DNA of 64,000 nt from an uncultured Clostridia bacterium (GTDB taxonomy: Bacteria; Bacillota; Clostridia; Christensenellales; UBA1242). The stretch's first letter is position 1, and each line of letters starts with the position of its first letter. Positions 3,919 through 64,000 of the stretch are shown here, in pieces. The position numbers and the translations under genes are program-made. The notes beneath the pieces are model-generated. The model was not told where the DNA came from, searched no databases, and worked only from the letters and a program-made list of their open reading frames with translations. The stretch spans positions 69,974 through 133,973 of the forward strand of contig CALVNR010000003.1 in NCBI GenBank assembly GCA_944349905.1, in the 5' to 3' direction.

Positions 3919-4036
3919 TTCCAGCAGTGTTCTATCTTCCCGGGCCGTCGCCAGCCAAGTATTTTCAACGATGAAAAGCTTAACTTCTGTGTTCGGTATG
4001 TGTACAGGTGGATCCTTTTCTCTATCGCCACTGGAA
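3919..4036 (-). rRNA. rrf: 5S ribosomal RNA
   Basis: The reverse complement reads CCAGTGGCGATAGAGAAAAGGATCCACCTGTACACATACCGAACACAGAAGTTAAGC...GGCCCGGGAAGATAGAACACTGCTGGAAT, which contains the conserved 5S core motifs. Ends are approximate (+/-3 nt). Confidence 0.9.
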
Positions 4037-4183: not shown

Positions 4184-7119
<2,936 letters not shown>

Positions 7120-11838: not shown

Positions 11839-13719
11839 TTAAGTTACTAAAAGAATAGTTGTACCTTTGTTTATTGATGTCCCAGCTGGTGGAAGTTGCT
11901 TTGTGATTATACCTCCATCTCCTTCAATTTCGCAATATAATCCAATCTTTCTTAGTTCTATAAGTGCATCTCCTAGCGACATACCTATTAAGTTAGGCAT
12001 TGCAACTTTTTCAACCACTACTGAGTCGTCTTGTTTTTCTTCGTTTAAATAAATAAAAAGATTTTTAAAAATTTGTTTACCATAAGGAGCAGCAACAAGT
12101 GAACCATAATAAACTCCTGCACTAGGCTCATCAACAAGCACAATTATGGCATATTTAGGTGCGTCTGCTGGATAAGTGCCGATAAAACTAGAAATATATT
12201 TACCTTGGTCTATACCACCAGTTTCTTTATATTTTTGTGCCGTTCCTGTTTTTCCTCCAACATTATAACCCTCAACAAAAGTATATTTACCTGTTTTGTT
12301 TTCAGCATATTCAAGAAGTTGATTTACAAGTTTTGTTGTATTTGAAGAAATAACACTAACATTTTGACTATCTTGCTTGTTTTCATCATACAAAATACTT
12401 AAATCAATTTTTTGCCCACCTATAATTGAACAAACAGCGTTCATAAGTTGAATAGGTGTCATAGCAATTGCGTGTCCAAACCCCATACGAGCAAGATCTA
12501 CCGTCTTAACAGAAGATTTTGGCATTAACATTCCACTGCTTTCACCAGAAATATCAATACCTGTTTTTTGACCTATTCCAAATTTTTCCATATATTGATA
12601 AAATTTTTCTACTCCCAGTCTTAATGCCAAATCCATAAAGCAACAATTACAAGAATTACCAAATGCTTCAAGCAAGGTCTGACTTCCATGCCCTATTGTT
12701 TTCCAACACTTTATTTTTATTCCGTCAACAATTCTATACCCTGGACAGTAAAATTTATCTTCAAGTGATGTAAGTCCTTCTTCTAACGCAGCAGCAACTG
12801 TCAAAATTTTAAAAGTAGAACCAGGCTCATACATGTCGGTAACAAGTTTCATTTTTGATTGGTCAAAAAGGATATCTAAATCATCTCTTGGCAACTCATT
12901 CAAATCAAAACTAGGTTTTGTAGACATAGCAAGAATGTCTCCATTTGTTACGTCTATAATCATACCACTTGCATTTTTCGCTTTTTGCTCTTGCATAATA
13001 TTGTTTAATGCATTTTCTAATATTTGTTGCATTTTGCTGTCAATAGAAAGATATAAATCTTCTCCTTCTTGTGCTTGAATGTAATATCTTAAACTTCCCC
13101 CAATTTCCTTTCCTTGCAAATCGCTTTGCACATAACTATATCCATCTTGTCCTTTTAACAATTCATCATAATACGCTTCCACTCCTGTTTGCCCTACATT
13201 ATCAACACTTGTAAAGCCTATAAGTTGTGAAGCTAAGTTCCCATTTGGATAATATCTTGAAACATTTTCAGCAAGATAAACCCCAGATAATTTCTTTTGA
13301 TAAATTTTTTCTGCAATTTCACTTTCTACGCCTAATTTAATCAAAACCTCACTAACGTTTTTCTTTTGAACTTTTTGATAAACATTGTCAAAATCTATAT
13401 TTAACAAAGTAGACAATGCTGTAGCAACTGTTGTTGGACTTTTTACTTCCCTTGCTCTTACAAAAACATTGTATGTCGTATAACTAACTGCTAGCGTCGC
13501 CCCTGTCCTATCATAAATTGTTCCCCTAGGAGCCACAATCTTTAAATCACGTGTCCACTGGTCAATTGCTTTTAATTGCAAGCTTTTGCCATTGATAATT
13601 TGAATAACAAAAAGTCGCACGCCAAGTGCACAAAAAATAAAGGATATTACCAATAACAATGCTAATATCCTTTTTCTAAAAGAAAATAATGTAAAAGGTT
13701 GTTTCAAATTATCCTCCAA
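11839..13719 (-). CDS. ftsI: Class B penicillin-binding protein (FtsI/PBP2B family) with a C-terminal PASTA domain
   Basis: N-terminal TM segment. Transpeptidase motifs STFK (PGSTFKIL), SCN (GNSCNCC) and KTGT (GGKTGTAQ). PASTA-like tail MPNLIGMSLGDALIELRKIGL. Located in the dcw position after rsmH and the FtsL-like gene. Confidence 0.9.
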   Translation of the reverse strand: MEDNLKQPFTLFSFRKRILALLLVISFIFCALGVRLFVIQIINGKSLQLKAIDQWTRDLKIVAPRGTIYDRTGATLAVSYTTYNVFVRAREVKSPTTVATALSTLLNIDFDNVYQKVQKKNVSEVLIKLGVESEIAEKIYQKKLSGVYLAENVSRYYPNGNLASQLIGFTSVDNVGQTGVEAYYDELLKGQDGYSYVQSDLQGKEIGGSLRYYIQAQEGEDLYLSIDSKMQQILENALNNIMQEQKAKNASGMIIDVTNGDILAMSTKPSFDLNELPRDDLDILFDQSKMKLVTDMYEPGSTFKILTVAAALEEGLTSLEDKFYCPGYRIVDGIKIKCWKTIGHGSQTLLEAFGNSCNCCFMDLALRLGVEKFYQYMEKFGIGQKTGIDISGESSGMLMPKSSVKTVDLARMGFGHAIAMTPIQLMNAVCSIIGGQKIDLSILYDENKQDSQNVSVISSNTTKLVNQLLEYAENKTGKYTFVEGYNVGGKTGTAQKYKETGGIDQGKYISSFIGTYPADAPKYAIIVLVDEPSAGVYYGSLVAAPYGKQIFKNLFIYLNEEKQDDSVVVEKVAMPNLIGMSLGDALIELRKIGLYCEIEGDGGIITKQLPPAGTSINKGTTILLVT

Positions 13720-14371: not shown

Positions 14372-15310
14372 TCAAATTTTTTCAACTATTCTTAGTTTTG
14401 CACTTGATGATCTTGAATTTTTCTGTAACTCTTCTTGCCTTGCAGTAATAGGTTTTCTTGTCACCATATCACATATTTGTTTGTGTTTGCAAATACAAAC
14501 AGGTGTTTTTGGTGGACAAATACAACCTGTGGTCGCATCTTTAAAAACATTTTTTACTATTCTATCTTCCAAACTATGAAAAGATATTATAGCAATTCGC
14601 CCTTTCTCATTAAGCAAGTCAATAAGATTTTCTATGCATTTTTTCAAGCCTTCAAGTTCTTGGTTAACTTCAATTCTTATTGCCTGAAAAGTCTTTTTTG
14701 ATACACCACCTTTTCCATAAATTATTTTTTTAGGAAAAGATTTTTCTATAATTTCTTTTAATTCAAAGGTTGTTTCAATTGGTTTTTCTTGACGTGCTTT
14801 GCAAATATTTTTGACAATGTTTTTTGCATTACTTTCTTCTCCATATTCATATAAAATTTTCAAAAGCTGTTTTTCAGAATATGTATTAACAACAGTAAAG
14901 GCTGTCAATTCTTGGCTTTGATCCATTCTCATGTCTAGCTTGCCGTTATGCAAAAAACTAAAACCTCTTTCTGCCGTATCAATTTGATAAGAACTTACAC
15001 CCAAATCAATAAGTATTCCGTCAATCTTTTTTGAATAACCGTTTTCTATTAAAAATTTATAAGCATTTTTAAAGTCAGATTTAACAATTATCACATTATC
15101 AAATTCTTTAAATCTTTCTTTGCAAGTTTTTATTGCGTCCTCATCTTTATCAAAACCAATTAATACACCCCTGCTTCCAATTCTTTTTAAAATTTCACTA
15201 GAATGACCTCCACCACCCATAGTGCAGTCAACATAAATACCTCCGGGCTTAATATTAAGCCCAGAGATAACTTCATCTAATAAAACTGGTTTGTGTTGAA
15301 AATTTATCAT
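14372..15310 (-). CDS. rsmH: 16S rRNA (cytosine1402-N4)-methyltransferase RsmH/MraW
   Basis: 312 aa beginning HKPVLLDEVISGLNIKPGGIYVDCTMGGGGHS, with the DLGVSSYQID and SFHSLEDRIVK motifs. Confidence 0.95.
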   Translation of the reverse strand: MINFQHKPVLLDEVISGLNIKPGGIYVDCTMGGGGHSSEILKRIGSRGVLIGFDKDEDAIKTCKERFKEFDNVIIVKSDFKNAYKFLIENGYSKKIDGILIDLGVSSYQIDTAERGFSFLHNGKLDMRMDQSQELTAFTVVNTYSEKQLLKILYEYGEESNAKNIVKNICKARQEKPIETTFELKEIIEKSFPKKIIYGKGGVSKKTFQAIRIEVNQELEGLKKCIENLIDLLNEKGRIAIISFHSLEDRIVKNVFKDATTGCICPPKTPVCICKHKQICDMVTRKPITARQEELQKNSRSSSAKLRIVEKI

Positions 15311-28300: not shown

Positions 28301-31300
28301 ATATCAATTTTATCTTCAATATTAGAAATATTATTTTCTCCATATTTTATTGTTGCTCCCTCTGTGATATTATAATTTTCTATATTTGTATCTTCTAAAC
28401 CGTCAATTGTTGTTGTCCATGAATACTCAAAAGTTGAAGAATCAAATGCTGCACTATATTTATCAGCTAAATAATAACTTGTATTGTTTATTTTTACAGT
28501 AAGGATATCATCTTCATTGCTATTTGATGGAGAAAAGTCATTTTTGCTTAATGATAAGTCGTCTTTTCTTGCTACTTCTAGACCGGTGTTAATTTTTTCT
28601 AAAACAGCTTCCTCTAACGATAAATTGCTATCCGTTTTATCATATAAGAACAAATCAAATGCACTTTTTGCATTAGCATTTTTTCCGTAAGTTCTTATTA
28701 TATAATCATATTCCCAAAAAGGTGACTCTTCATATGTATTCGTAATTATTGCTGAAAAAATATTTAATTTTTGGTAATCTGCAAAAACAACTGGTATTCC
28801 TAAATAATTAGATTGTAATATGCAAAAATATCCTGTGTCATCTTTTTTTATAGCTTGTTCTGTAACTTCTGGTCTAATCTTCAATACCATTTCGTATTCT
28901 GTCCCTGCGATTGCTCCGACACCATCATATACTTTCTTCCAGTATTTTAACTCCCAATAATTTCCTGTTGTAGTTGGATCATAGTATTGCAATAATTCTG
29001 ATTCATAGTTTTTAATGTACACTTCTTGATTATTTTGATAATTTAATTCATAATATACTGTACCTTTTTTACATGCTCCTCCGTTTCTCACAACTTCTAC
29101 ATTTTCGTTATAATTTACATTATTTGCATTTATATTAGAAATGTAATTAGCAGAAACGTTCGGTTTACTCTCCTGAACAACCTGTATTTTCAAATCGTCA
29201 ATATTTTCAATTGCAGGAATCGTGCCTAATTTTGGATCATATGTGTATGTTATGTTCTTATAAATTTTTTCATCTACACGATTAATGTTTTCTATCTTAA
29301 ATTTAATTTCTGGATTTTCGCCTAATGCTTCAATAGGCCCTTCATTGTAACAATCTGAAATTTTATAAGTATTATTATTTAGCTCCACAGATTTTGCAAC
29401 TATACCAGCAGCATAAGACATTGAAGTGTTATTTTTATTTCCTGCTTTTATCATACCAGCATTGTAGCAGTTTGATACAGTCATAGATGATGATTGATTG
29501 TATCCAACAATTCCACCTGCATAATAACCATTATCTTCTGAATCCTCTGTATTTGTATAACCACTCAAAACTGAACTACCATTAAAGCAATAGTCTATAA
29601 TTGTAGTTGAACCACTGGCAATTTGTCCAACTATACCACCTGCTGCATTCCCAGTTGTGTTTAATGGGCCATAGTTTGAACAGAAATTAATATTTACTTC
29701 ACCACTAACACTTCCTGCAATAGCACCTATATTTCCAGTTGAATCTATTTTAACCATACTTGTAACAGTATCAATACTTGTAACAGTATCAATATTGCCA
29801 CCAGTTATGGTATTTGCAAGAGCACCTGCATGCTCTACATATTTTTCTATATTGATTGTGCCTTCAAGGGTCATATTAGATACTGTTCCATTAGAAATTT
29901 CATTTGCAAGTGCAGCAGTAGAAGAAGATATTTCAGTTAATCTCAAATTTCTTACTGTTCCAGAAAGAGTTTTAAACAAACTAGTATTAAGACCAACAAT
30001 TGTTTTGTCTTGTCCATCTAATTCTACACCAGCAAATCCTAATTCTTTCTCATTTTTGTCTTTTTGTGACAAAGATACCCATTCGTTGTTATATTCAGTA
30101 TTAGACAAATCTATATCATACATCAAGACAAAATTGTTTGCTGTAATATCTGTAATTTTTGCTAAAATTCCAGCATTTGGAATCATATATGAATAACCTT
30201 TGGTAGATGAAGGTACTTCTCCATTTAAAACCTTTGTGTAAGTATATGTTGTTATACAGTCATCGTAAGTAATTGGTTTCTCTTTTGCAGTGCTATCCCC
30301 TGAATTTCTTTCAGCCCAAGAAGATTGTTTTAAGTAAACAAAACCTCTTGTTGGATATCCATAATTGAAATCAATATCTTTTACCCAATTGTTATATTTA
30401 AATAAACTTCCACCTTCTAAAAATTCACTTGTGTTTGTATCTGTTAAGCCGTTATAATTTACACCATTAGTATCAAAATATGAATTTGTCGTTGATGCTC
30501 CACTGAACACACCTATTGTGCCACTTGGAGAAGTGTTTTCACTTGTATAGTCATTCCAATCAAGTTTTGCAATAGTATATGAATTTGATATATTCAAACT
30601 TGTTGTTCCACTAGCGAAGGCATACATATTTGCATCAATGTAAGTTACAACAGAGCCTGTTGCATAAGTGTAATCAATATAAGCATTATTACCATTTGCA
30701 TAATTTGCAATTGCAGAAATTGTTCCGCCATCAGCAGCACGATAAATCATATCAAGGTTTGTATAACTTTCAGCAATAAGTCCACCAGTCATTTGGCCTA
30801 CAATACCACCCATGCTGATGCTAGCAGTTCCCCCTATTGACATTGAGCCATTGACACCAACACCATAAATAATGCTGTTTTTACTCATTTGATCTACAAG
30901 GCCACCAACATTATTAGTAGCACTATCTGATGACATATTTATAATAAGATTTACACCTGATATTGAACTATAACCTGAAATTGAACTTACAACTGCTTTT
31001 TCAATAATATTAGAATTTGATGTTAAATCAATATCTACAAAGTTGCCTACAATAGCAACATTAGTTAAAGTCTCTAAATTAGAAGCGTTTAATAAAACAT
31101 CTGCTGTGTAATATTTAATATCATAGTCAAATTCGTTTCCATCTGTCTTTCCTTCTGTTAGATATTCCGAAGATGGATTAAGTTTGCTTATGTTGTCATG
31201 CCAGTTTTTATTTTCTGTTTCTTTGAGCCATGTCGCAAATTCTGATAAAGATTGATTCAAACCTTTTATTTTACCAATAATAAAAATACCAGTTTCTTCA

Positions 31301-51308: not shown

Positions 51309-51396
51309 GGAGAGATGGCTGAGCGGTCGAAAGCGGCGGTCTTGAAAACCGTTGATGTGAAAGCATCCTGGGGTTCGAATCCCTATCTCTCCGCCA
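51309..51396 (+). tRNA. tRNA-Ser (anticodon UGA), class II with long variable arm, CCA encoded
   Basis: GGAGAGA acceptor pairs with TCTCTCC. Anticodon loop is CTTGAAA. Long variable arm TGATGTGAAAGCATCC. T-arm is TGGGGTTCGAATCCCTA. Ends GCCA. Confidence 0.92.
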
Positions 51397-54197: not shown

Positions 54198-54232
54198 TAA
54201 AAAAAGCTCAATTTTAGAATTGAGCTTTTTTA
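54198..54232. terminator. Bidirectional intrinsic terminator
   Basis: 10-bp stem aagctcaatt / aattgagctt (54204-54213 / 54218-54227), flanked by an A-run and a T-run. Confidence 0.8.
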
Positions 54233-55075
54233 AACGTTTTCTATTTCATCTGATATATCAATAACTTCTTTGTTGTATTTTGTATGTTTTTTTAGGTTTT
54301 TAATAACATTACCCTTTTTATCGTTTTTATCGCTATATTTTTTCTCTTGATTTTTATAATGCGGTTTTTCTTCTTTAACTACCAATCTTTGAATCAATGG
54401 ATTCAAAATTTTTCTTTGCTTTGCATTATTAATATGAAAATAAATTTCTTTTTCTCTTTTTTTAAAAATTCTTTCTACTTCCTTATAATCTATTTCCTTA
54501 ACATCTAAAATAGCATGTTTAGCTTCATGTTTTACTCTTGGCAAATTTCTTGCTTTACTTGCTGCCTCAGATGCTGTTAAAGCTTTCACTACAAAAACGC
54601 CTGGATAATATCTATTTCTTCCTACATGTCCACATTTAACAACAACTTTAAAATTTTTTACTTTTATAGAATCTTGCATGGTAACTACTGATGTTTTAAA
54701 ATAATGAAACAATGTAGACATTTGTGAATGATATTTTTCTTTTATGTATTTACTACTTTTCTTGTAAACTGACCTTAATGCAGAAAATTTGGTTTTTGCA
54801 GTGTGAGGAATTTCTTTTTTATTAACAATATTAAAACAAATCCTGCTAAAATCTTGGAAATTAATTATAAATTTTGCATCGTATATACAAGTCAACTCTG
54901 GCATTTGTTCTTCTTTATTATAAAAATTATTTAAAATTTTAATCACAAGTTCTTTATTTCCTGGTGCTATTTTGTCTACTTCTTTTGCGATTGTTTCCTT
55001 ATCATAGTATATAGGCCTGCCTTTAATACTATTTAATTTAGAAAAAAATGTAGCCATAACTACAAGCATCTTCAT
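54230..55075 (-). CDS. Hypothetical basic protein
   Basis: 281-aa ORF with SD AAAGGGAA. No family recognised. Confidence 0.55.
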   Translation of the reverse strand: MKMLVVMATFFSKLNSIKGRPIYYDKETIAKEVDKIAPGNKELVIKILNNFYNKEEQMPELTCIYDAKFIINFQDFSRICFNIVNKKEIPHTAKTKFSALRSVYKKSSKYIKEKYHSQMSTLFHYFKTSVVTMQDSIKVKNFKVVVKCGHVGRNRYYPGVFVVKALTASEAASKARNLPRVKHEAKHAILDVKEIDYKEVERIFKKREKEIYFHINNAKQRKILNPLIQRLVVKEEKPHYKNQEKKYSDKNDKKGNVIKNLKKHTKYNKEVIDISDEIENV

Positions 55076-55339: not shown

Positions 55340-57535
55340 ATGAATAATAACAAAAAACAAAATGTAGAAATTCTTGCACCAGCTGGTAATTTTGAAAGTT
55401 TAAAAGTTGCAATAGACAATGGAGCAAATGCTGTTTATCTTGGACTTGAAGACTTTAACGCAAGAAACAATATTGAAAATTTTAATACGGAAAATTTGCA
55501 TGAAGTCGTTGATTATGCACATTTTTTTAACGTTAAAATTTACATAACCATAAATGTTTTAATTAAAGATGATGAATTTGAAAAAATTATTGATATTGTA
55601 AAAAAATCATTGCAAGCAAATGTAGATGCTTTTATTGTTCAAGATATTGGGCTTGCATATTATTTGAAGCAAAAATTTCCAAACATTGAATTGCATGCAA
55701 GCACACAGATGGGTTTTAATAATTTAGAAGGTGTTTTATTTGCTAAAAAACTTGGTTTCAAACGTGTTGTGCTGGCAAGAGAAACTCCCCTTGCAGAAGT
55801 TAAACGAATAAAAGAAAATTGCGACATAGAACTTGAATATTTTATTCAAGGTGCTTTGTGTGTGGCTTATTCTGGGAATTGCTATTTATGTTCACTCCTT
55901 GCAAACAGCAGTGGTAATAGAGGGCAATGCAAACAATTTTGTCGTCTCGCTTATTCAATGAAAAATGGAAATATAAGCAAAGATGGTTACCTTTTAAGCA
56001 CCAAAGACTTTTGCATGATACCCAAGCTTAAAGATTTGATTGATGCTGGAATTTACAGTTTGAAAATTGAAGGTAGAGCAAGAAGACCTGCATATGTAGC
56101 ACAGTCTGTCAAAACTTACAGAAAAATAATTGATAATAATTTTAATTTCTCAGATGAAGATATTCTAGATTTAAAAAAGGTTTTTAACCGTGGTAATTTT
56201 GCATGTGGCTATTTTGATAATAACAATATAATATACAGCAAATGTCAAAACCATATTGGTGTTGAAATTGGAAAAGTAATTGATTTTGTACAAGGAAAAA
56301 AATTTAATGAAGTATTTATCAAATCAAATTATAAAATAAAAAAAGGTGATGTAATAAAATTTTTCAAAAATGATAAAGAAATTGGAATTGTAGCAGTAAA
56401 CGACTCAAACGAAAAAAAATGTGGGATTTATAGAATAACAACTACAAATCATATTGAAAATAATTCTATTGCAAGATTGATTGTTGATAGTGATAAAGAA
56501 AAGGAACTCTTGACAAAACATAAACAAATTTATGTTGACATTGATTTTTATGCCAAACAAAACCAAAAAGCAAAGTTAATTTTAAAAACACAAAACATCA
56601 ATGTTGAGATAGAAAGCGATTTTTTTGTAGAAAAAGCAAAATCTTCTCCTATAAATGAAACTGATTGTAAAACTCAATTTTCAAAACTTGGAAAACTTTT
56701 CTCTCTTAAAAGTTTTTTTTGTGAAATTGGGAATGTTTTTATAGCAAAATCTCAACTTAACCAACTAAGAAGACAGGCGCTTGAAAAATTAAAGCAAGAG
56801 ATGATAAATGATTATAACAATAAAAACAATATAAATAAAAAAAGAATTGAGGCAGACGACAAAATATTTATTTCAAATTCAATTTCAACAAGCAAAAAAA
56901 TGGCTCTAATAGACAAATTTGATAATTTTGAAAAATTTAAAAATAAATATGACTTATTTATATTTCAGCCAAATACGATAAACACAACAGAAATAAAAGA
57001 ATTATACAACAAATATAATCATCATAAAGTTTTTATTTCTTTTCCTATAATGGTAAATGAAAAAGAAATTGAAATTATCAAATCTTTACTTGATTATTGT
57101 AAAAATTGGGGTATCTACGCAAACAATTATTACACTTTATCTTTAACAACTCCAGATAGGATTGTGCTCGGAAGCAATATGAATGTTTTCAACTCTTATA
57201 CTATAAAATTTTATAAAAACATTGGAATTGAAAAAATTGTGTTGACAATTGAAGATATAGATAGAAATTTAATACAAAACAACGGAACATCATTGTTTTC
57301 TTTTACAAAATTTTATCCTGAATACATGTATCTTAAGCACTGTCCTTTAAAGGAACATTTTTCAAGTAAATGCGATAATTGTCTTTACAAAAATAATTTG
57401 AGTTGCAAATTGAACAACAAAGAATTTGTTTTGTTGAGACGAAAATTTTTACAATGCAACTTTGTTTTAAAAAGTAAAGCATTAATTTTAACAAAAACAC
57501 CTGAAAATATTTCTAGCATAGAAGAAATATTTTAA
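55340..57535 (+). CDS. Peptidase U32 family protein
   Basis: 731 aa. The N-terminus EILAPAGNFESLKVAIDNGANAVYLG and the ...LKIEGRARRPAYV motif are typical of the U32 family. Confidence 0.9.
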   Translation: MNNNKKQNVEILAPAGNFESLKVAIDNGANAVYLGLEDFNARNNIENFNTENLHEVVDYAHFFNVKIYITINVLIKDDEFEKIIDIVKKSLQANVDAFIVQDIGLAYYLKQKFPNIELHASTQMGFNNLEGVLFAKKLGFKRVVLARETPLAEVKRIKENCDIELEYFIQGALCVAYSGNCYLCSLLANSSGNRGQCKQFCRLAYSMKNGNISKDGYLLSTKDFCMIPKLKDLIDAGIYSLKIEGRARRPAYVAQSVKTYRKIIDNNFNFSDEDILDLKKVFNRGNFACGYFDNNNIIYSKCQNHIGVEIGKVIDFVQGKKFNEVFIKSNYKIKKGDVIKFFKNDKEIGIVAVNDSNEKKCGIYRITTTNHIENNSIARLIVDSDKEKELLTKHKQIYVDIDFYAKQNQKAKLILKTQNINVEIESDFFVEKAKSSPINETDCKTQFSKLGKLFSLKSFFCEIGNVFIAKSQLNQLRRQALEKLKQEMINDYNNKNNINKKRIEADDKIFISNSISTSKKMALIDKFDNFEKFKNKYDLFIFQPNTINTTEIKELYNKYNHHKVFISFPIMVNEKEIEIIKSLLDYCKNWGIYANNYYTLSLTTPDRIVLGSNMNVFNSYTIKFYKNIGIEKIVLTIEDIDRNLIQNNGTSLFSFTKFYPEYMYLKHCPLKEHFSSKCDNCLYKNNLSCKLNNKEFVLLRRKFLQCNFVLKSKALILTKTPENISSIEEIF

Positions 57536-57814
57536 ATTAAAAAAATAAAACAAGGATTTTTATTACATAGAACTAAAATTATAAAATTAGAAGGACAAAC
57601 GAACAGAAGTGCAAATGCCATTAATCAAGCACTAACACAAACTAAAAAAGAAAAACAAGTTGATGATAAAAACAAACAAAAAACAAGACAAGAACTAGAA
57701 GATGAAATTTTACATCTTCAACAACTTATTAAAGAGCAAGAAGAACAAGATCGCATAGAACAAGAACTAGAAGAAAAGCGTAAACAGAAAAAACGACAAC
57801 AAGCAGAAATGTAA
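57536..57814 (+). pseudogene. Possible remnant of a gene 3' end (coiled-coil tail with no start codon)
   Basis: Open frame ...KLEGQTNRSANAINQALTQTKKEKQ...EEKRKQKKRQQAEM* with no ATG, GTG or TTG start. It is followed by its own terminator at 57974-58021. Confidence 0.25.
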
Positions 57815-57973
57815 AAATTTCGCAAAAAAACACTTTATAATAAGATATAATATTACACGATAATAAACGGCATTTTGCAAAAATTTGGAACAAATTCGTG
57901 ACAAATTCGTAGACATTGCCAATTTTTTAATGTTTTTAATAAAAAAATAAACAATTTTAATTGAAAAAATTTG

Positions 57974-58021
57974 AACCCACAAGTTAAGATTTAAGTCTTG
58001 ATTTGTGGGTTATTTTTTTTT
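57974..58021 (+). terminator. Intrinsic terminator (plus strand)
   Basis: Stem aacccacaa / ttgtgggtt (57974-57982 / 58003-58011) followed by a 9-nt T-run. Confidence 0.7.
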
Positions 58022-58061
58022 GCATAAATAAGAACCTGCGTTGCAGAACCTTGCGTAAACT

Positions 58062-58093
58062 AAAAAAAATCTAGCGAAACCTAAAATCGCTAG
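58062..58093 (-). terminator. Intrinsic terminator (minus strand) downstream of the tRNA fragment
   Basis: Stem ctagcga / tcgctag (58071-58077 / 58087-58093), followed on the minus strand by an 8-nt U-run (58069-58062). Confidence 0.7.
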
Positions 58094-58117
58094 AAGTCCC
58101 TTTAGTAATGGAATTTA

Positions 58118-58162
58118 TGGTGCTCCACGAGGGATTCTAACCCCCAACCCTTGGTTCCGAAG
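58118..58162 (-). pseudogene. 3' half of a tRNA-Arg(UCG)-like gene (anticodon loop to CCA); the 5' half is absent
   Basis: Minus strand reads CUUCGGA ACCAA GGGUU GGGGG UUAGAAU CCCUC GUGGAGC A CCA. These are the anticodon loop (U33, anticodon UCG, G37), variable loop, T-arm, acceptor 3' strand, discriminator and CCA. Sequence 5' of position 32 cannot pair with the anticodon-stem or acceptor strands. The T-loop has A at the normally invariant C56. Confidence 0.6.
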
Positions 58163-58320
58163 GGGCGACCTGAAAATGCCAAGAGTTCGACTTTTCGTAT
58201 CATATTTTACCATAAAATATCATATCAAAAATCTCTCAATCCCTTTATTTTTCAGCATTTTCGCCACTTCTTCTTATCAAACAATACTATACAATACTTC
58301 CACCTAAAAATACAACACAA

Positions 58321-58369
58321 ACACCCCGTTTGCAAAAGTCTTGCATTTTTCTTGCAAAAATTTGTAACA
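58321..58369 (+). repeat. 49-bp direct repeat, copy A (degenerate promoter/operator-like)
   Basis: acaccccgtttgcaaaagtcttgcatttttcttgcaaaaatttgtaaca matches copy B at 44 of 49 positions. It contains three TTGCA(A/T) elements. Confidence 0.85.
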
Positions 58370-58456
58370 TTTTAAGCTATGTTAATTTGTTTTTTAAATG
58401 AGGTTACGCATAATAATAAATATTTTTATTAAAATTTATTCTTTAAAATATCTTGT

Positions 58457-59230
58457 TTATGTTTTTTTTGTTATTGTCAATATATGCGTTGATAATCCAA
58501 GCATTTCTTTTTTTTCACATACTCTTAATTGCCAATCTTTTATAATTTCAAATTCCTCCTCATCAAGTTGGTTTGAATGTTCCTTTAAAATTTCAAATAA
58601 CCCATCAGTAGAAATATCTTTAATATGTTTTAATCCTGCGTCTTTAACATATTTTTTAAATTCATCAATAAAATATGATTTATAAATATCTTCAGAAAAA
58701 GATTTAAAATAACCTATATCGTTAAATAAATTTTTACATTTTTTTAGATTTTTATTTATAAGTCCATATCTAATTATAATTGCTGTAGGTGAAAGAAAGG
58801 TAAATAAAACAAATCCTCCTTTTTTACAAATTCTAACACTTTCACTTATGGCTTTCTTAATATCTTTTTCTTCAAATAAATGAGAGAGAACTCCATTTAC
58901 AAACACAATATCGAAACTTTCATTTTTAATTGATTTTAAGTTTATTATATCAGCTATAACTGTTTTTATATTTTGTTTCTTTGGAAAAGACGAAAAATAT
59001 TTGCCAAATATGTCCACTGCGGTGATTTCAATGTTTCTGTTTGATAATTCTGGAGTAAAAGCTTTAATACCTGAACCAATTTCGATAACTTTATCTCCTT
59101 CTTTTATATATTTGTTCAAATATAAACATGTTATATATCTTTCAAGTTTTGCATAATTTGAAGGATTTTCAAATTTTTCATCGTTTCTATTTTTATAAAA
59201 ATTATAAAGATTATCAACTCTTTTGTTCAT
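58457..59230 (-). CDS. Class I SAM-dependent methyltransferase
   Basis: 257 aa. Motif I is KVIEIGSGIKAF and the post-I acidic residue is in ITAVDI. FDIVFVNGVLSHL is also present. Substrate unknown. Confidence 0.8.
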   Translation of the reverse strand: MNKRVDNLYNFYKNRNDEKFENPSNYAKLERYITCLYLNKYIKEGDKVIEIGSGIKAFTPELSNRNIEITAVDIFGKYFSSFPKKQNIKTVIADIINLKSIKNESFDIVFVNGVLSHLFEEKDIKKAISESVRICKKGGFVLFTFLSPTAIIIRYGLINKNLKKCKNLFNDIGYFKSFSEDIYKSYFIDEFKKYVKDAGLKHIKDISTDGLFEILKEHSNQLDEEEFEIIKDWQLRVCEKKEMLGLSTHILTITKKT

Positions 59231-59362
59231 AACTTTTCTCCTATCAATCCGATTATATCACACTATATTAAATAATTTACAAAATTTTCATTATTTTTTA
59301 ATATTGTGTCAATTTTTTTATTATAAAAATAGATATACAAAAATTACAAAATAAAATACAAA

Positions 59363-59411
59363 ACACCCCATTTGCAAAAATCTTGCATTTTTCTTGTAAA
59401 AATTTATAATA
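59363..59411 (+). repeat. 49-bp direct repeat, copy B; doubles as the likely promoter of the terS operon
   Basis: acaccccatttgcaaaaatcttgcatttttcttgtaaaaatttataata. It contains TTGCAT (59383-59388), 16 nt, TATAAT (59405-59410). Confidence 0.8.
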
Positions 59412-59569: not shown

Positions 59570-59609
59570 TAGGTTGTTCACTTTTTGTGGTGGGCAACCT
59601 ATTTGTTTG
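59570..59609 (+). promoter_or_regulatory. Stem-loop plus T-rich tract just upstream of the terS RBS (possible attenuator)
   Basis: taggttg (59570-59576) pairs with caaccta (59595-59601) across an 18-nt loop, followed by tttgtttg. Confidence 0.3.
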
Positions 59610-59620
59610 AAAGGAAAAAT

Positions 59621-60046
59621 ATGGATAAATTTGAAAAGGAAATGTTAGAGAATAATAGAAAGGCTGCGATTGCAACACAAGAAAACAACGATAAGATTTT
59701 AACCATTCCAAGTTATTTAACAAAGGAAGAAAAGGTTGCATATAGCGAGATTGTGCAAACCTTAAAAGAAAGCATCCATTACAGGCTATCTTCAACTGAT
59801 GCTGAACTAATTTGGCAATATTGTCAGATCAAAATTATGCGTGATAGAGCTTGGCGAGAATACAACAAAAACCCAGATAGATATATTCGTATAGTTACAG
59901 GAATTTGTAGTGATGGAAAAACGCCAAAAGTTATGGTTAAAGAAAATGAACACTATAAAACATTAATAGATTGCAATAAACAACTCGAAAAGATTTTAAA
60001 AGATTTGAGATTGACACCAGAAGCAAGAAAGAAAAGATATTTTTAG
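59621..60046 (+). CDS. terS: Phage terminase small subunit, P27 family
   Basis: 141 aa from the ATG at 59621 (SD AAAGGA). The pattern IPSYLTKEEKVAYSEIVQTL...DAELIWQYCQ...LKDLRLTPEARKK matches the P27-family layout. Confidence 0.75.
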   Translation: MDKFEKEMLENNRKAAIATQENNDKILTIPSYLTKEEKVAYSEIVQTLKESIHYRLSSTDAELIWQYCQIKIMRDRAWREYNKNPDRYIRIVTGICSDGKTPKVMVKENEHYKTLIDCNKQLEKILKDLRLTPEARKKRYF

Positions 60047-60098: not shown

Positions 60099-60488
60099 AT
60101 GTATACAGGTTATTTTGGAAAAATGAAAAGTTATCCTAAGGATAAAGAATATAGATATGTTTCTATTGCAAGGTTTAATAAATTTTGGTCAGGAGAAGAA
60201 TATAAAAAGTTGACACCACCTGCAAGTATTATAAAAATTGAAGATAAAGAACTTTATACAAAGTTGTATTATGAGCAAGTATTAAACAACTTAAATCCGC
60301 AAGAAGTGTATAATGAACTTGGAGATAATGCTGTTTTGTTATGTTATGAAAAATATGCAGATATTGAACAAGGAAAAACATTTTGTCATAGGCATATGGT
60401 GGCTAAATGGCTAGAAGAAAAACTAGGAGTTGAGGTAAAAGAATTAGAAAATGAGAATAAAGACAATAGTCAACAATTACATTTCTAA
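60099..60488 (+). CDS. DUF488-like small protein (phage-associated type)
   Basis: 129 aa. MYTGYFGK...YVSIAR...VLLCYEK......FCHRHMVAKWLEEKLGVEVKEL resembles the DUF488 LLC.E...CHR signature. SD GAGG. Confidence 0.5.
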   Translation: MYTGYFGKMKSYPKDKEYRYVSIARFNKFWSGEEYKKLTPPASIIKIEDKELYTKLYYEQVLNNLNPQEVYNELGDNAVLLCYEKYADIEQGKTFCHRHMVAKWLEEKLGVEVKELENENKDNSQQLHF

Positions 60489-61668
60489 CTTTATTAATGA
60501 AAATAAATTTAGAAATATTTATATCTATGGGTCTAAGTACTTACAGATAGAAAAATTAATAAGTAAATCAACATCGTCATCAATAATTGGTGACGATGTT
60601 GATTTTTGTAACACATTACTTGCAGAATATTATTTAAATAGGGATAAAAAAATTATTCTTCCAGACCATGTGTGTAAATCTTTACGAATAGAAAATCAAG
60701 ATGTTTATTCAAGTGTAGAGAAAGTTGCATTAGCAATTATTGGAAATAAAATCCTTCATAAAGAAAGCAATTATCACTCCACAAGGTTAAATGATAATAT
60801 AATTAAAAATTTAGATTTATTGGTTAAACAAATAGTTCAAAAAGTTGAAGGAGAAGACATAAAATTAACAGATTTTAAGCAAATGAGTTTAAAAGATTTT
60901 ACAAAATTGCCAGAAAAAGAAGATTTGTTGATAATTGACAATAGAGATTCTAACAATTTAAAGAAAAGTTTGCATGAACAATTACTTGATATTGGTACAA
61001 GTTTCATAATTTTATCTAAAAAGGATATCAATAATTTGGGGGAATATAAAGTATTGCATAGTAAAACTATTAAGATATTCTCAAATTGCATAGAAAACAA
61101 TATGTTAATATCCAAACAAAACAACAAAACAGATAAACAATTGTCTTTTGATACTATTGAAAATGATAATATTGAACATGTTGCCTTAAAGCAATTAAAT
61201 CATACTCAGTTCAATTCTTTAAGACAAAAATATTTAAGCAAACAAATTCACTTTACCGGCACTCCTAAAGTTTGTTATGGATTATTTAGCGGAAACAAAA
61301 TATTTGGAGTCTTTGGTTTAACAAATGATTATAATCATAAACCACCAAAGGATATTGAGCATCCGTCAGTTTATTTGATGACAGATTTTTGTGTTAAAAG
61401 TTCAATAAATAAGTTAAGCAAACTTGTTTTATATTGTATTTTAAGTAAAGATGTGAAAATGTTGGCTGAAAGATTAGTTAGCAAAGAAGTTAAAAGTATA
61501 TTTACTAATGTATTTACGAAACATAAAAGTTCTATAAAATATAGAGGTTTGTTTGATTTACATACTAGAAAAGAATTAGAAGATAAATCATTTAACTTAA
61601 CATATATTTCAAAATTTGGTAATTGGACATTAAAGGAGGCTGTAAGCTTATGGAAACAGAAATTATAA
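60451..61668 (+). CDS. Hypothetical 405-aa protein (C-terminal half faintly acyltransferase/Mom-like)
   Basis: The ORF overlaps both neighbours, by 38 nt upstream and 19 nt downstream. The C-terminal YGLFSGNKIFGVFGLTN...VYLMTDFCV...KLSKLVLYCIL pattern is only suggestive. No family recognised. Confidence 0.6.
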   Translation: MRIKTIVNNYISNFINENKFRNIYIYGSKYLQIEKLISKSTSSSIIGDDVDFCNTLLAEYYLNRDKKIILPDHVCKSLRIENQDVYSSVEKVALAIIGNKILHKESNYHSTRLNDNIIKNLDLLVKQIVQKVEGEDIKLTDFKQMSLKDFTKLPEKEDLLIIDNRDSNNLKKSLHEQLLDIGTSFIILSKKDINNLGEYKVLHSKTIKIFSNCIENNMLISKQNNKTDKQLSFDTIENDNIEHVALKQLNHTQFNSLRQKYLSKQIHFTGTPKVCYGLFSGNKIFGVFGLTNDYNHKPPKDIEHPSVYLMTDFCVKSSINKLSKLVLYCILSKDVKMLAERLVSKEVKSIFTNVFTKHKSSIKYRGLFDLHTRKELEDKSFNLTYISKFGNWTLKEAVSLWKQKL

Positions 61669-62522
61669 AAATAGACCCAAGAAAAATAAAACTTTTAGAA
61701 GTCAATGCAAGATATATGAAACCTGAAGAATATGAAAAGTTGGTTTCAAATATAAAGAAAGATGGTAAACTAACTTCAGTCCCATTTTGCTATTACAATG
61801 AAGATAATAAAATTGAGGTGCTTTCTGGCAACCACAGAGTAATGGCTTCTATTGAGGCCGGACTAAATGAAATACAAGTAATGCTTTGTAAAGATAAACT
61901 TTCAAAAGATAAAGCATTAGCAATTCAATTAAGCCACAATTCTATAGTAGGACAAGATGATGAGGAATTGTTAAGAAAATTATATGCAGAACTCGAAAGT
62001 TTGGAATTTAAAGAATATTCAGGACTGACAGATGATTTCATAAATTTTTGCAAGCAAACTGAAAAAGATTTTAAAATACCTAATTTACAGTATCAAGCAA
62101 TTAATTTACTATTCTTACCTAAGGAAATAAATGATATCAAAAATTGTTTAGAAGATTTAGGCGAACTGTTAAATAGCTTTACAATTCTAGCAAACATAAA
62201 GGATTATGATAACTATTTGGAAACTTCATCTTTAATTTCTAAATGTTTAAATATCAAAAATCCATCCACCACTTTTTTATCAATATTAGAACTCTCAAAA
62301 CAAAATATCAACAATTTAAAGAAAATAGCTTTTGATAATGAAAATATAGATTATACTCCTATTTCTACGATATTAGGAAGAAGTGATATAAATAAAGAAT
62401 ACGCTATTACAATAGATAATGCATTAAATAAAATGGTAGATAAAAGAATTATTAAGAAAAATGAAAAAGGGAAAGGTTTATATCTTTTAGCACAAGAATA
62501 TTTAAAAAACATTAAATCGTAG
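61650..62522 (+). CDS. ParB/Srx-fold (ParB-like nuclease) domain protein
   Basis: I prefer the start at METEIIKID (ATG 61650), preceded by AAGGAGG. The N-terminal region IDPRKIKLLEVNARYM...VLSGNHRVMASIEAGL matches the ParB N-terminal domain, and the C-terminal ~190 aa are unknown. Confidence 0.75.
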   Translation: METEIIKIDPRKIKLLEVNARYMKPEEYEKLVSNIKKDGKLTSVPFCYYNEDNKIEVLSGNHRVMASIEAGLNEIQVMLCKDKLSKDKALAIQLSHNSIVGQDDEELLRKLYAELESLEFKEYSGLTDDFINFCKQTEKDFKIPNLQYQAINLLFLPKEINDIKNCLEDLGELLNSFTILANIKDYDNYLETSSLISKCLNIKNPSTTFLSILELSKQNINNLKKIAFDNENIDYTPISTILGRSDINKEYAITIDNALNKMVDKRIIKKNEKGKGLYLLAQEYLKNIKS

Positions 62523-62683: not shown

Positions 62684-64000
62684 ATGTTAGTTAATTTCTC
62701 CGTTAAAAATTATAAATCTTATAAAGATGAAGCAAATTTTACTATGAGAAAGGCTCCTAGAATAAGAGATTTATCTTATAGCCTACTTAAAGAAAAAATA
62801 AAAAGTAAGAACTTTGAAGTTTTATCATCTTCTGTATTATATGGCCCAAACGCATCCGGCAAAAGCAATATTCTTGACGCGATGAACACATTAAAACATA
62901 TTATATTGCGAGGTTCCATTAAAAATGCTCCACCAATAGCAGGAACTCCCAATGCTCAATCAAATCTAGAGTTAATACCTTTTATTTTTGGTGCAGAAAA
63001 TCCAATAAATTTTAAAATTGAATTTATTTATAATAATTTTCACTATTTATATGAATTATCTATTAATGTAGGAGAATTTCTGTCAAGCAGTCAATTTAGA
63101 GAAATTGAATACGAAAAACTTGATATTAATTTTGTCAATATATTTGAAAGAGAGAGAAATAATCTAAAAAGACTAAGTATATTAAAAGATTATAAAGATG
63201 ATTTTATAGATGATATTGATACGGATAAAATAAAATCAATGTTTAACGAAACTTTGGTTGAAGACTCTATTTTTCTTACTAACGGTTTTAAAAATATTAG
63301 CAAAAAGTTTAGCCAAGATATAATTAAATGGTTTGAAAGTGATTTAATAATTATTCCTAAGTTAGAAGGAACATTTAGCTTACCTATATTTGAAGATAAA
63401 AAAGTTTACATTGATACTTTTGTTAATAATATTGCAAAACAGTCAGGAATTAGCGGTTCTGATATTGCTTATATTAAAGATGAAAGCTCGAAAACTGTTA
63501 CCGTTTCATTAATTCAAAAAGATAAAGACTCAAGCAAAGGCACATTCATACCTGTAAATGTTGTAGAATCCTATGGAACAGCAAGAATAATTCAGTTAAT
63601 GCCAATTATTTTAAGCGTTTTACAAAACGGCTCAGTATTAGCGGTTGACGAACTGGATGGGGCTTTACATCCAATGCTAATGATGAATATAATTAGTATT
63701 TTTCATAATGATGAAATAAATATTAACAATGCTCAATTAATTTTTAACACACACAACCCTATATATTTAAACAATTCTATATTTAGAAGGGATGAAATTA
63801 AATTTGTTGAAAAAGATTTAAATACTCATAGTAGTGTCCTTTATGCATTGTCTGACTTTGGTACAAAAGGTGAAAATTCCGTAAGAAATACAACAGATTA
63901 TATAAAAAATTATTTTATGAATAAGTATGGGGCTATTTTAGACATTGATTATACTGATATCTTCAAAGATGCTATGAGAGGTGTAATAAATGAAAAAAGC
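62684..64000 (+). CDS. ABC/SMC-like ATPase of the AAA_21 (COG1106-like) type; 3' end beyond the window
   Basis: Not in the track because it is edge-truncated. Begins MLVNFSVKNYKSYKDEANF. Walker A is GPNASGKSN, Walker B/D-loop is LAVDELDGALHP and the H-loop is IFNTHNPIYL. Also has RRDEIKFVEKD....SVLYALSDF and a YFMNKYGAI tail. Confidence 0.8.
   Translation, partial: MLVNFSVKNYKSYKDEANFTMRKAPRIRDLSYSLLKEKIKSKNFEVLSSSVLYGPNASGKSNILDAMNTLKHIILRGSIKNAPPIAGTPNAQSNLELIPFIFGAENPINFKIEFIYNNFHYLYELSINVGEFLSSSQFREIEYEKLDINFVNIFERERNNLKRLSILKDYKDDFIDDIDTDKIKSMFNETLVEDSIFLTNGFKNISKKFSQDIIKWFESDLIIIPKLEGTFSLPIFEDKKVYIDTFVNNIAKQSGISGSDIAYIKDESSKTVTVSLIQKDKDSSKGTFIPVNVVESYGTARIIQLMPIILSVLQNGSVLAVDELDGALHPMLMMNIISIFHNDEININNAQLIFNTHNPIYLNNSIFRRDEIKFVEKDLNTHSSVLYALSDFGTKGENSVRNTTDYIKNYFMNKYGAILDIDYTDIFKDAMRGVINEKS

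Follow-up and report, generated by a model that had tools for sequence, protein, structure and literature searches.

A tRNA-Arg(UCG) 3′ half marks the end of a mobilisable island that probably destroys its target gene and carries a replacement

We analyzed a 64,000-nucleotide stretch of DNA from an uncultured Clostridia bacterium (contig CALVNR010000003.1; hereafter the window), in which the 3′ half of a tRNA-Arg(UCG) gene and its terminator lie directly at the end of an integrative element. Minus strand positions 58163–58118 read CCTTCGGAACCAAGGGTTGGGGGTTAGAATCCCTCGTGGAGCACCA, a sequence found once in the window with 0 chance matches expected. From 58162 to 58118 it resolves into an anticodon loop (CUUCGGA), the stem strand ACCAA, a variable loop (GGGUU), a T-arm (GGGGG/UUAGAAU/CCCUC), the acceptor strand GUGGAGC, A73, and CCA. 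These are tRNA positions 32–76, as an earlier note on this DNA had proposed, and 45 of 45 nucleotides are identical to intact tRNA-Arg(UCG) genes. The displaced 3′ half itself (positions 39–76) occupies 58118–58155 on the minus strand. It is preceded by the 7-nt anticodon loop CTTCGGA (58156–58162, minus strand; anticodon UCG), which the homology breakpoints and the comparison of junctions described below single out as the probable crossover or overlap segment. Beginning 23 nt past the CCA we find the intrinsic terminator of the tRNA gene (58062–58094, minus strand), an 8-bp stem (strands 58094–58087 and 58077–58070) with a 9-nt loop followed by eight U (the T-run at 58069–58062). A simple terminator scan overlooked this hairpin because the scan allows loops of at most 8 nt, and we used the fold and an alignment in its place. 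The hairpin is kept across 14 variants of related loci, with compensatory changes in 3 pairs, and it trails the intact tRNA gene at >20 loci, in agreement with the terminator that the earlier note had placed behind the tRNA half.

ARAGORN and Rfam call no tRNA at 58062–58165 as found in the window, and the fragment alone gives a weak, 5′-truncated match to the Rfam tRNA model (model positions 30–71, 15.7 bits, E = 0.23, with a cut-off of 29). The matching 5′ half, GCTCCACTAGCTCAACTGTATAGAGCATTGGT, is absent from the entire window even when 3 mismatches are allowed, so that the half is without a 5′ partner, as had been claimed. A covariance model that recognized a complete, unusual RNA at this position had been named as a test of that reading; Rfam searches at the gathering threshold and at E ≤ 10 returned nothing relevant over 57500–59000, and we rejected such an RNA together with an anticodon-loop group I intron and a permuted tRNA. 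The end of a tmRNA was also discarded: ARAGORN found no tmRNA, and the acceptor strand does not fit one. The window sequence taken alone is suggestive of a tRNA half rather than decisive.

We gathered other contexts of the junction through contigs that encode exactly the 405-residue protein and the ParB-like protein of the window. The DNA to the right of the fragment recurs at 99.95–99.98% identity over 5.8 kb beside four other left flanks, and homology between the window and other element copies ends at 58152 or 58156. In every context the element end, ...caggtcgccc-CTTCGGA, precedes a tRNA-Arg 3′ half ending in CCA, and eight distinct 3′ halves (counting L058; the L numbers are our handles for related sequences) adjoin the same element end at 58163. 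Element ends, host 5′ halves, host 3′ halves, and the linkers described below have no sequence in common other than CTTCGGA. We thus find a short common core of 7 nt inside the tRNA gene, as in tRNA-dependent integration, and a displaced fragment of the Islander type, identical at 45 of 45 positions to intact tRNA-Arg(tcg) genes in 28 genomes. The same junction is present in independent assemblies (ENA ERZ28614000, Logan ERR4096597, and the window). Both the site-specific integration at the anticodon loop and the position of the fragment exactly at the end of a mobile element, as put forward in the earlier note, are borne out by these junctions: the left boundary of the island is fixed to the base at 58163. 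When we used the flanking U32 peptidase to seek an empty site, only three contigs with the exact protein were recovered, all in the same occupied context. The junction has no match among phages, the element has none among plasmids, and the element end has none in IMG/VR.

The left attachment arm of the present element extends from 58163 to 58369 on the minus strand and is, with ∼205 nt, the only part conserved (76–92%) among variants with different cargo. It contains a 21-nt inverted repeat (58189–58233), the repeat TTGCAAAAATTTGTAACA (58352–58369), and a promoter-like sequence predicted by a scan (TTGATA-18-TATGAT, 58228–58199), which faces the core and would read across it. The repeat TTGCAAAAATTTG(G/T)AACA is present in both arms of the element in the same orientation.

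We next turn to the intact gene. A search for exact matches to the 45-mer, with one genome per species and metagenome-assembled genomes (MAGs) in 8-kb pieces, returned 37 stretches from ∼33 species-representative MAGs labeled uncultured Clostridia bacterium, Christensenella sp., or Catabacter sp. A full-length gene (GCTCCACTAGCTCAACTGTATAGAGCATTGGT-CTTCGGA-ACCAAGGG...CCA) with the 45-mer as its 3′ portion is present in 28 of the 37 stretches; ARAGORN calls it tRNA-Arg(tcg), and it scores 63.6 bits with the Rfam tRNA model. The A at position 56 of the T-loop had been considered consistent with decay of a dead copy. It is present in these intact, high-scoring genes, including those at sites without an element, and is therefore a feature of a good gene and not of decay. 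The D-loop of the allele has a single G followed by U (AACUGUAUA), and the alignment of this loop is ambiguous; if it is read as G18/U19, a U19–A56 pair could possibly stand in for G19–C56, judging from the standard tertiary pairs of tRNA.

The far ends of related elements were reached by walking to the right through a homologue of the MobL relaxase. This walk led to intact tRNA-Arg(tcg) genes on the same strand, beside a tyrosine integrase of 421–440 residues (Int2) and an excisionase (Xis). Ahead of the intact gene, 22 of the 28 genomes as well as L018 and L019 carry a tRNA-Arg 5′ half of different, species-specific sequence, followed by CTTCGGA and a 47-nt, non-tRNA linker (for example ACACATATTTTGGGGTTCGATAATCCCCATAAAAAAATTATCATTTT); the stub lies 54 nt upstream of the intact gene in the 22 genomes. 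Reading its sequence, we find that the linker resembles a decayed T-arm that lacks an acceptor strand, and that a promoter-like site (TTCGAT-17-TATCAT) stands just before the intact gene. Behind the linker follow the complete tRNA-Arg(UCG), its terminator, an arm of ∼250 nt, and the tyrosine integrase with its excisionase. ARAGORN and Rfam find no tRNA on the stub plus linker and call only the downstream gene. Neither junction type hence yields a functional tRNA in silico (no ARAGORN or Rfam call). We count ∼20 distinct stubs, whose sequences complement the displaced 3′ halves of left ends (pairs GCACCCA/TGGGTGC, GCGTCTA/TAGACGC, GCACCTA/TAGGTGC, and GCTCCCA/TGGGAGC). Rejoining stub and displaced half in silico gave a tRNA-Arg(tcg) call in 6 of 6 cases, compared with 0 of 3 for junctions as found or mismatched, and the 3′ half of the window is likewise called tRNA-Arg(tcg) when joined to the 5′ half of the intact gene.

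A complete tRNA-Arg(tcg) stands beside the core at the 22 occupied sites, in L018 and L019, and even in a 1.26-kb mini element. The earlier note had expected the intact gene at the far end, where on the classical model it would be the rebuilt target. Our comparison contradicts such rebuilding, as 22 far ends carry the host 5′ half and the linker, followed by a separate, complete, element-borne gene. Restoration of the host gene by fusion, which characterizes Islander-type islands, is not observed; the intact gene stands on its own, 47 nt deeper in the element. From the stub-linker fusion and the separate, complete tRNA-Arg(UCG) we therefore conclude that the target is destroyed and not rebuilt, and that the island brings a full gene with the same anticodon. 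The second copy of the 45-nt sequence with an adjacent integrase, for which the earlier note had suggested a search, is present in the MAG contig CASFHD010000005.1, inside an intact gene: the displaced 45-mer (14868–14912) and the intact gene (30828–30872) share a strand and are separated by 15,960 bp. Immediately inward of the intact gene lie Int1, a sigma-like protein, MobL, an integrase-like 228-residue protein, Xis, and Int2, the last ∼0.4 kb from the tRNA.

Five genomes (L024, L031, L035, L036, and L056) carry the allele without an upstream stub. In L036 the tRNA is located amid housekeeping genes, with no stub and no integrase within 6.8 kb, and represents an unoccupied native locus; L056 and L035 have a related terminator behind the tRNA. 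Because such stub-free native loci exist, the allele must be native somewhere and have been captured with a short promoter region and its terminator type. At L038 (1–8000), a stub, a linker, and an element-type tRNA are followed by housekeeping genes (a PALP enzyme, a PP-loop ATPase, and a hexapeptide transferase) and no integrase; at this site the element has been lost apart from the replacement tRNA. Upstream of the element tRNA, L019 (15875–16300, minus strand), L045 (398–800), and L018 (∼14700–14900) carry as many as three stub units, spaced exactly 200 bp apart. Each unit comprises a tRNA-Arg 5′ half, CTTCGGA, and ∼160 nt of G+C-richer sequence (ACCTGCTCG...CTAATGGTTCCTCA), and the D-arm of one L018 unit is interrupted by a G+C-rich insertion. 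These units have no Rfam match and may reflect a 200-bp element that carries a 5′ half.

The DNA to the left of the fragment is also element-derived. Positions 57608–57814 (plus strand) are a relic of the 3′ end of an Int2 gene, containing only the C-terminal tail and the stop codon, as defined by tblastn and blastn: 57608–57703 is 97% identical to residues 373–404 of L019 Int2, and 57610–57818 is 96% identical to L019 13410–13618. The segment 57815–58061, colinear with the spacer between integrase and tRNA in L019, L030, L040, and L047, is the attachment arm of this older copy. It contains a plus strand hairpin with a T-run (57974–58011) and the repeat TTGCAAAAATTTGGAACA (57875–57892, family D1), which recurs in the other arm. 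Altogether 57610–58162 (553 nt) form one colinear block with L040 (96.6% identity) and L030 (95.1%), where the integrase gene continues, whereas in the window the relic begins 72 nt after the stop codon of the U32 peptidase. The terminator, regarded earlier as the host's original, hence belongs to an older element copy, as do 240 nt of arm and the final 200 nt of an integrase gene. Because the core leads into the tRNA's own 3′ half, where a phage-type attachment site (attP) would have the linker, the joint arose by genuine recombination of an incoming element with the loop of a tRNA already owned by an element. In the simplest history an older copy was resident, the present copy landed in its tRNA, and most of the older copy subsequently disappeared; an element that excised through its own tRNA and then re-integrated would yield the same joint as this two-step history.

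Three independent boundaries fall within ∼20 nt of each other, past the catalytic-tyrosine region of Int2 (...DVYSHLDYSSKYESAN), at 57608–57620 in the window, at ∼6025 in L013, and at 13412–13426 in L018 and 13410–13429 in L019. They correspond to two integrase-tail relics and to the end of a 95%-identity block between L018 and L019. The coincidence is too close for random deletions. We also attempted to estimate the size of the deletion from synteny with the U32 gene of L013, and abandoned this approach because that gene shares 40% identity over 222 residues and is hence not an orthologue.

Taken together, we consider it likely that the island starting at 58163 cut a tRNA-Arg(UCG) gene in its anticodon loop and left 58118–58162 as the 3′ part, that this island leaves the host gene unrestored and carries a replacement, and that the gene hit here was the tRNA of an older copy. 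A lambda-like tyrosine integrase would exchange strands across the 7-bp loop. Int2 (421–440 residues), with Xis and the putative arm-type sites TTGCAAAAATTTG.AACA in both arms, is the most likely recombinase; it is the better candidate because most copies have it next to the arm and its length would accommodate an arm-binding domain. As only the loop would have to match, the island could enter any tRNA-Arg(UCG) allele, including the replacement gene of a resident island. The present island would have hit the tRNA of the older copy, with 57608–58155 as the tail of that copy, the remainder of which would have been lost later, as far as the U32 peptidase gene. From the layout of full copies we predict a far end ∼20 kb to the right, on the minus strand, consisting of GCTCCACTAGCTCAACTGTATAGAGCATTGGT (GCTCCAC...TTGGT), CTTCGGA, a linker of ∼47 nt (..GGGGTTCGATAATCCCCATAAAAAAATTATCATTTT), and an intact tRNA-Arg(UCG). 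Since the replacement gene shares the anticodon loop it is itself a target, which accounts for tandem pile-ups or stacked stubs (L026, L033, and L019) and for the relic in the window. A requirement for the 7-bp loop alone would account for the presence of a near-identical element in many tRNA alleles and for the nested relics that accumulate at these loci.

Several observations weigh against parts of this reconstruction. The far end of the window's copy lies beyond 64000; all three assemblies with the U32 flank stop inside the element; and no single contig combines both ends with exactly the window's left arm, the arm variant in CASFHD01 being 88% identical. The older-copy history needs a later deletion, and its end point is within ∼10 nt of that in the independent L013 relic, which random deletion does not explain. 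L032 (reverse complement, 1–780) has the 312-residue Int1 332 nt from the tRNA and is missing the Int2 segment, so that Int1 may be the acting integrase instead. Finally, the junction expected of an attP circle (left arm, CTTCGGA, and linker) was not found in JGI metagenomes, a result of little weight in a collection with only one contig bearing the arm.

A fragment and terminator left by a tRNA-gene island would usually, as such islands are outlined in PMC4383910, be the host's original, with the 3′ half brought by the element fusing to the host 5′ half to rebuild the gene. Where the native gene is the same allele, both ends indeed share the whole 45-mer (CASFHD01). We nevertheless think this classical arrangement quite unlikely: the 22 far ends have a host 5′ half with a linker that lacks an acceptor strand and on which no tRNA is called, the intact gene stands apart, with a promoter-like site and a terminator of its own, and the supposed original flank in the window bears an integrase tail and an element arm. 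It is also unlikely that the element inserted directly into a native tRNA-Arg(UCG), the left 550 nt being native chromosome that resembles the arms because elements once captured the gene with its surroundings. The native-looking allele of the five genomes and the related terminator in L056 and L035 would fit this account. The native loci share, however, only the gene, a short promoter region, and the terminator type, none of them having an arm or an integrase tail, and the 553-nt match at 95–97% identity takes in 200 nt of coding sequence for the integrase, broken off abruptly at a distance of 72 nt from the U32 gene.

Could the chimera of element end, tRNA 3′ half, and terminator be a functional small RNA, transcribed from the outward-facing site at 58228–58199? 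No other promoter-like match in the region is as good as this site (10 of 12 positions), a terminator is present at the 3′ side, and the 141-nt stretch folds somewhat better than its shuffles (z = −2.3), although 6 of 200 shuffles fold equally well. No Rfam family matches it, and its 3′ part varies with context (eight alleles with different terminators), so that nothing selects for the chimera; we regard such an RNA as very improbable. Hardly any credence is due to an artefact of assembly, or to a random tRNA pseudogene that has nothing to do with mobile elements. The sequences do come from metagenome assemblies, whose contigs often break inside the element. Yet the same junction is found in ERZ28614000, ERR4096597, and the window, merely 7 nt are shared across the joint and leave no repeat for an assembler to collapse, and the break matches a conserved mobile-element end to the base in eight contexts.

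For the role of the element tRNA we offer a more tentative proposal, which may possibly hold. It would replace the destroyed host gene, tie the cell to the island for decoding of CGA and CGG, and offer the next landing pad, and the allele with A56 would be spreading through dozens of gut Clostridia species and replacing native genes. If so, islands would pile up or turn over at one locus, and tRNA-dependent lysogeny would extend from phages to mobilisable defence islands, with the addition of a self-renewing target. A horizontally spread tRNA allele that replaces native ones is relevant to the use of tRNA genes as stable markers or as engineering integration sites.

An island in a tRNA gene with its crossover at the anticodon loop is of a textbook kind, and the anticodon-loop class of integration sites is said to have been described by Williams in Nucleic Acids Research in 2002. 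The general kind is thus known; the lack of restoration together with a cognate gene is unusual. As in classical tRNA-gene islands, we find in this family a tyrosine integrase beside a tRNA gene, a displaced fragment in direct orientation at the other end, and a crossover in the 7-nt anticodon loop between symmetric stem strands. Islander-type islands, in the account of PMC4383910, restore the disrupted gene with an island-carried fragment; in the present family decay has reduced the core-adjacent fragment to a linker, and its role falls to a separate whole gene. A closer parallel is the tRNA-dependent lysogeny of Fionnbharth and other cluster K4 and L actinobacteriophages (Guerrero-Bustamante and Hatfull, mBio 2024; PMC10865867), in which mycobacteriophages use a core of ∼10 bp in tRNA-Lys and the dependence of the host on the phage tRNA has been shown experimentally. 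Both systems have a tyrosine integrase acting at a short core in a host tRNA gene (∼10 bp in the phages, 7 bp in the island), putative arm-type sites flanking the core, no functional tRNA rebuilt at either junction, and a complete tRNA of the same isotype and anticodon carried by the element. They differ in the carrier, which is here a mobilisable island of 1.3 to ∼21 kb with a MobL relaxase and defence cargo in MAGs of uncultured gut Clostridia and Christensenella-like bacteria. The island's replacement gene, at a distance of 47 nt from the core and with an identical anticodon loop, is a target in turn, which gives tandem pile-ups in the window, L026, and L033. For the island family, sequence data alone yield ∼20 dead host stubs of different sequence, along with eight displaced halves. 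A possible case in Firmicutes is the Lactobacillus johnsonii prophage Lj965, which reportedly rebuilds no tRNA at the junction and encodes a cognate tRNA; it is a prophage, however, and we draw the likeness from its description in the paper that cites it (PMC10865867). The authors of PMC10865867 ask how common tRNA-dependent lysogeny is elsewhere. Bringing one's own tRNA has so far been described mainly for some mycobacterial phages and demonstrated for actinobacteriophages only, and we encounter it here in a non-phage island family of uncultured human-gut Clostridia. For annotation, the 550 nt to the left of 58163 are best regarded as the wreck of an earlier copy, and the missing tRNA half should not be expected as a fusion gene.

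The part of the island contained in the window has a G+C content of 25.7%, compared with ∼29–30% for the remainder. Next to the left arm it encodes a SAM-dependent methyltransferase of 257 residues as cargo (58457–59230, minus strand; Pfam Methyltransf_11, E = 2e-13), which is flanked by a 61-nt direct repeat (89% identical; 58307–58367 and 59348–59409) inside the element. All following genes are on the plus strand: a small terminase-like protein of the P27 family (59585–60046; Pfam Terminase_4, 30.3 bits with a cut-off of 24.7; phrog_83, terminase small subunit), two overlapping genes (60099–61668) for a 129-residue protein (phrog_2450, unknown function) and the 405-residue protein (Pfam GNAT-phage-like, E = 6e-40), a 290-residue protein with a ParB N-terminal-like domain (61650–62522; phrog_7405, E = 9e-71, ParB-like phrogs, and a weak match to Pfam ParB_N), and an AbiLi-type ATPase of an abortive-infection defence system (62684–64000; Pfam AAA_21, E = 2e-25; PADLOC AbiLi, E = 2e-73), which runs off the window. 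In full copies AbiLi is followed by AbiLii/RloB (PADLOC, L010), and the genes beyond the window also include those for a YpsA-like protein, a swappable restriction-modification module, Int1 (312 residues), a sigma-like protein, a 146-residue protein, a MobL/MobP2-like relaxase, the integrase-like 228-residue protein, Xis, and Int2. The cargo between the YpsA-like protein and Int1 differs: L008 (13903–19181), of the window's lineage, has a type IIG-like set (T5orf172/Eco57I/MmeI-type), and most other copies, for example L010 (13866–16700), have a GmrSD-like type II enzyme and an EcoRI-like methylase. Extrapolating from L008 and the full copies, we estimate that the island is ∼20–21 kb long, with its far end near window coordinate 78–80 kb.

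No capsid, portal, tail, or lysis genes are found in the parts of the element that we have seen. With a MobL relaxase and defence genes, no virion genes, and no match among phages, plasmids, or viral contigs, it does not resemble a temperate phage. It is similar to integrative mobilisable elements and to satellites of the phage-inducible chromosomal island (PICI) type in that it combines an integrase and Xis with a lone relaxase (MobL/MobP2-like), lacks conjugation machinery of its own, and carries a small-terminase-like gene as well as anti-phage cargo. It is unlike PICI-like satellites in that we recognized no replication or primase module and no helper-interference genes in the element. Satellite status rests on one weak small terminase match (30 bits), and the two integrases suggest a composite of two units. 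The most apt description of the element is an integrative mobilisable defence island that has a single satellite-like gene.

Variants illustrate how this island is put together. L032 is without a 6.9-kb segment from the sigma-like gene to Int2, which suggests that the large element is a composite of two units. The 1.26-kb mini element (L034, 1–1260) consists of the tRNA, the terminator, ∼0.8 kb with one small open reading frame, and a 250-nt left arm, and has entered another tRNA-Arg allele. An attP-type junction or a head-to-tail tandem is seen in L033 (minus strand, around 136 and 51), where a left arm is joined via CTTCGGA to a linker and a complete tRNA. We considered a right end at L009 and L011, where homology stops 21 nt into the gene for the 146-residue protein; as neither a core nor a tRNA follows, we treated these as deletion variants. 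L012 (97–1676) has a gene for a 450-residue integrase where L010 (1018–1676) has five tRNA genes (Lys, Gln, Gln, His, and Arg-TCT), homology resuming at the boundary between tRNA-Arg(TCT) and tRNA-Gly; this looks like a second, unrelated tRNA-targeting element nearby. The chromosome to the left of the junction in the window contains 23S rRNA (4184–7119, minus strand), 5S rRNA (3919–4035, minus strand), and an intact tRNA-Ser(TGA) (51309–51396, plus strand). Between the pyrophosphatase and U32 peptidase genes, an open reading frame for a lysine-rich protein of 281 residues without a Pfam match occupies 54230–55075 on the minus strand.

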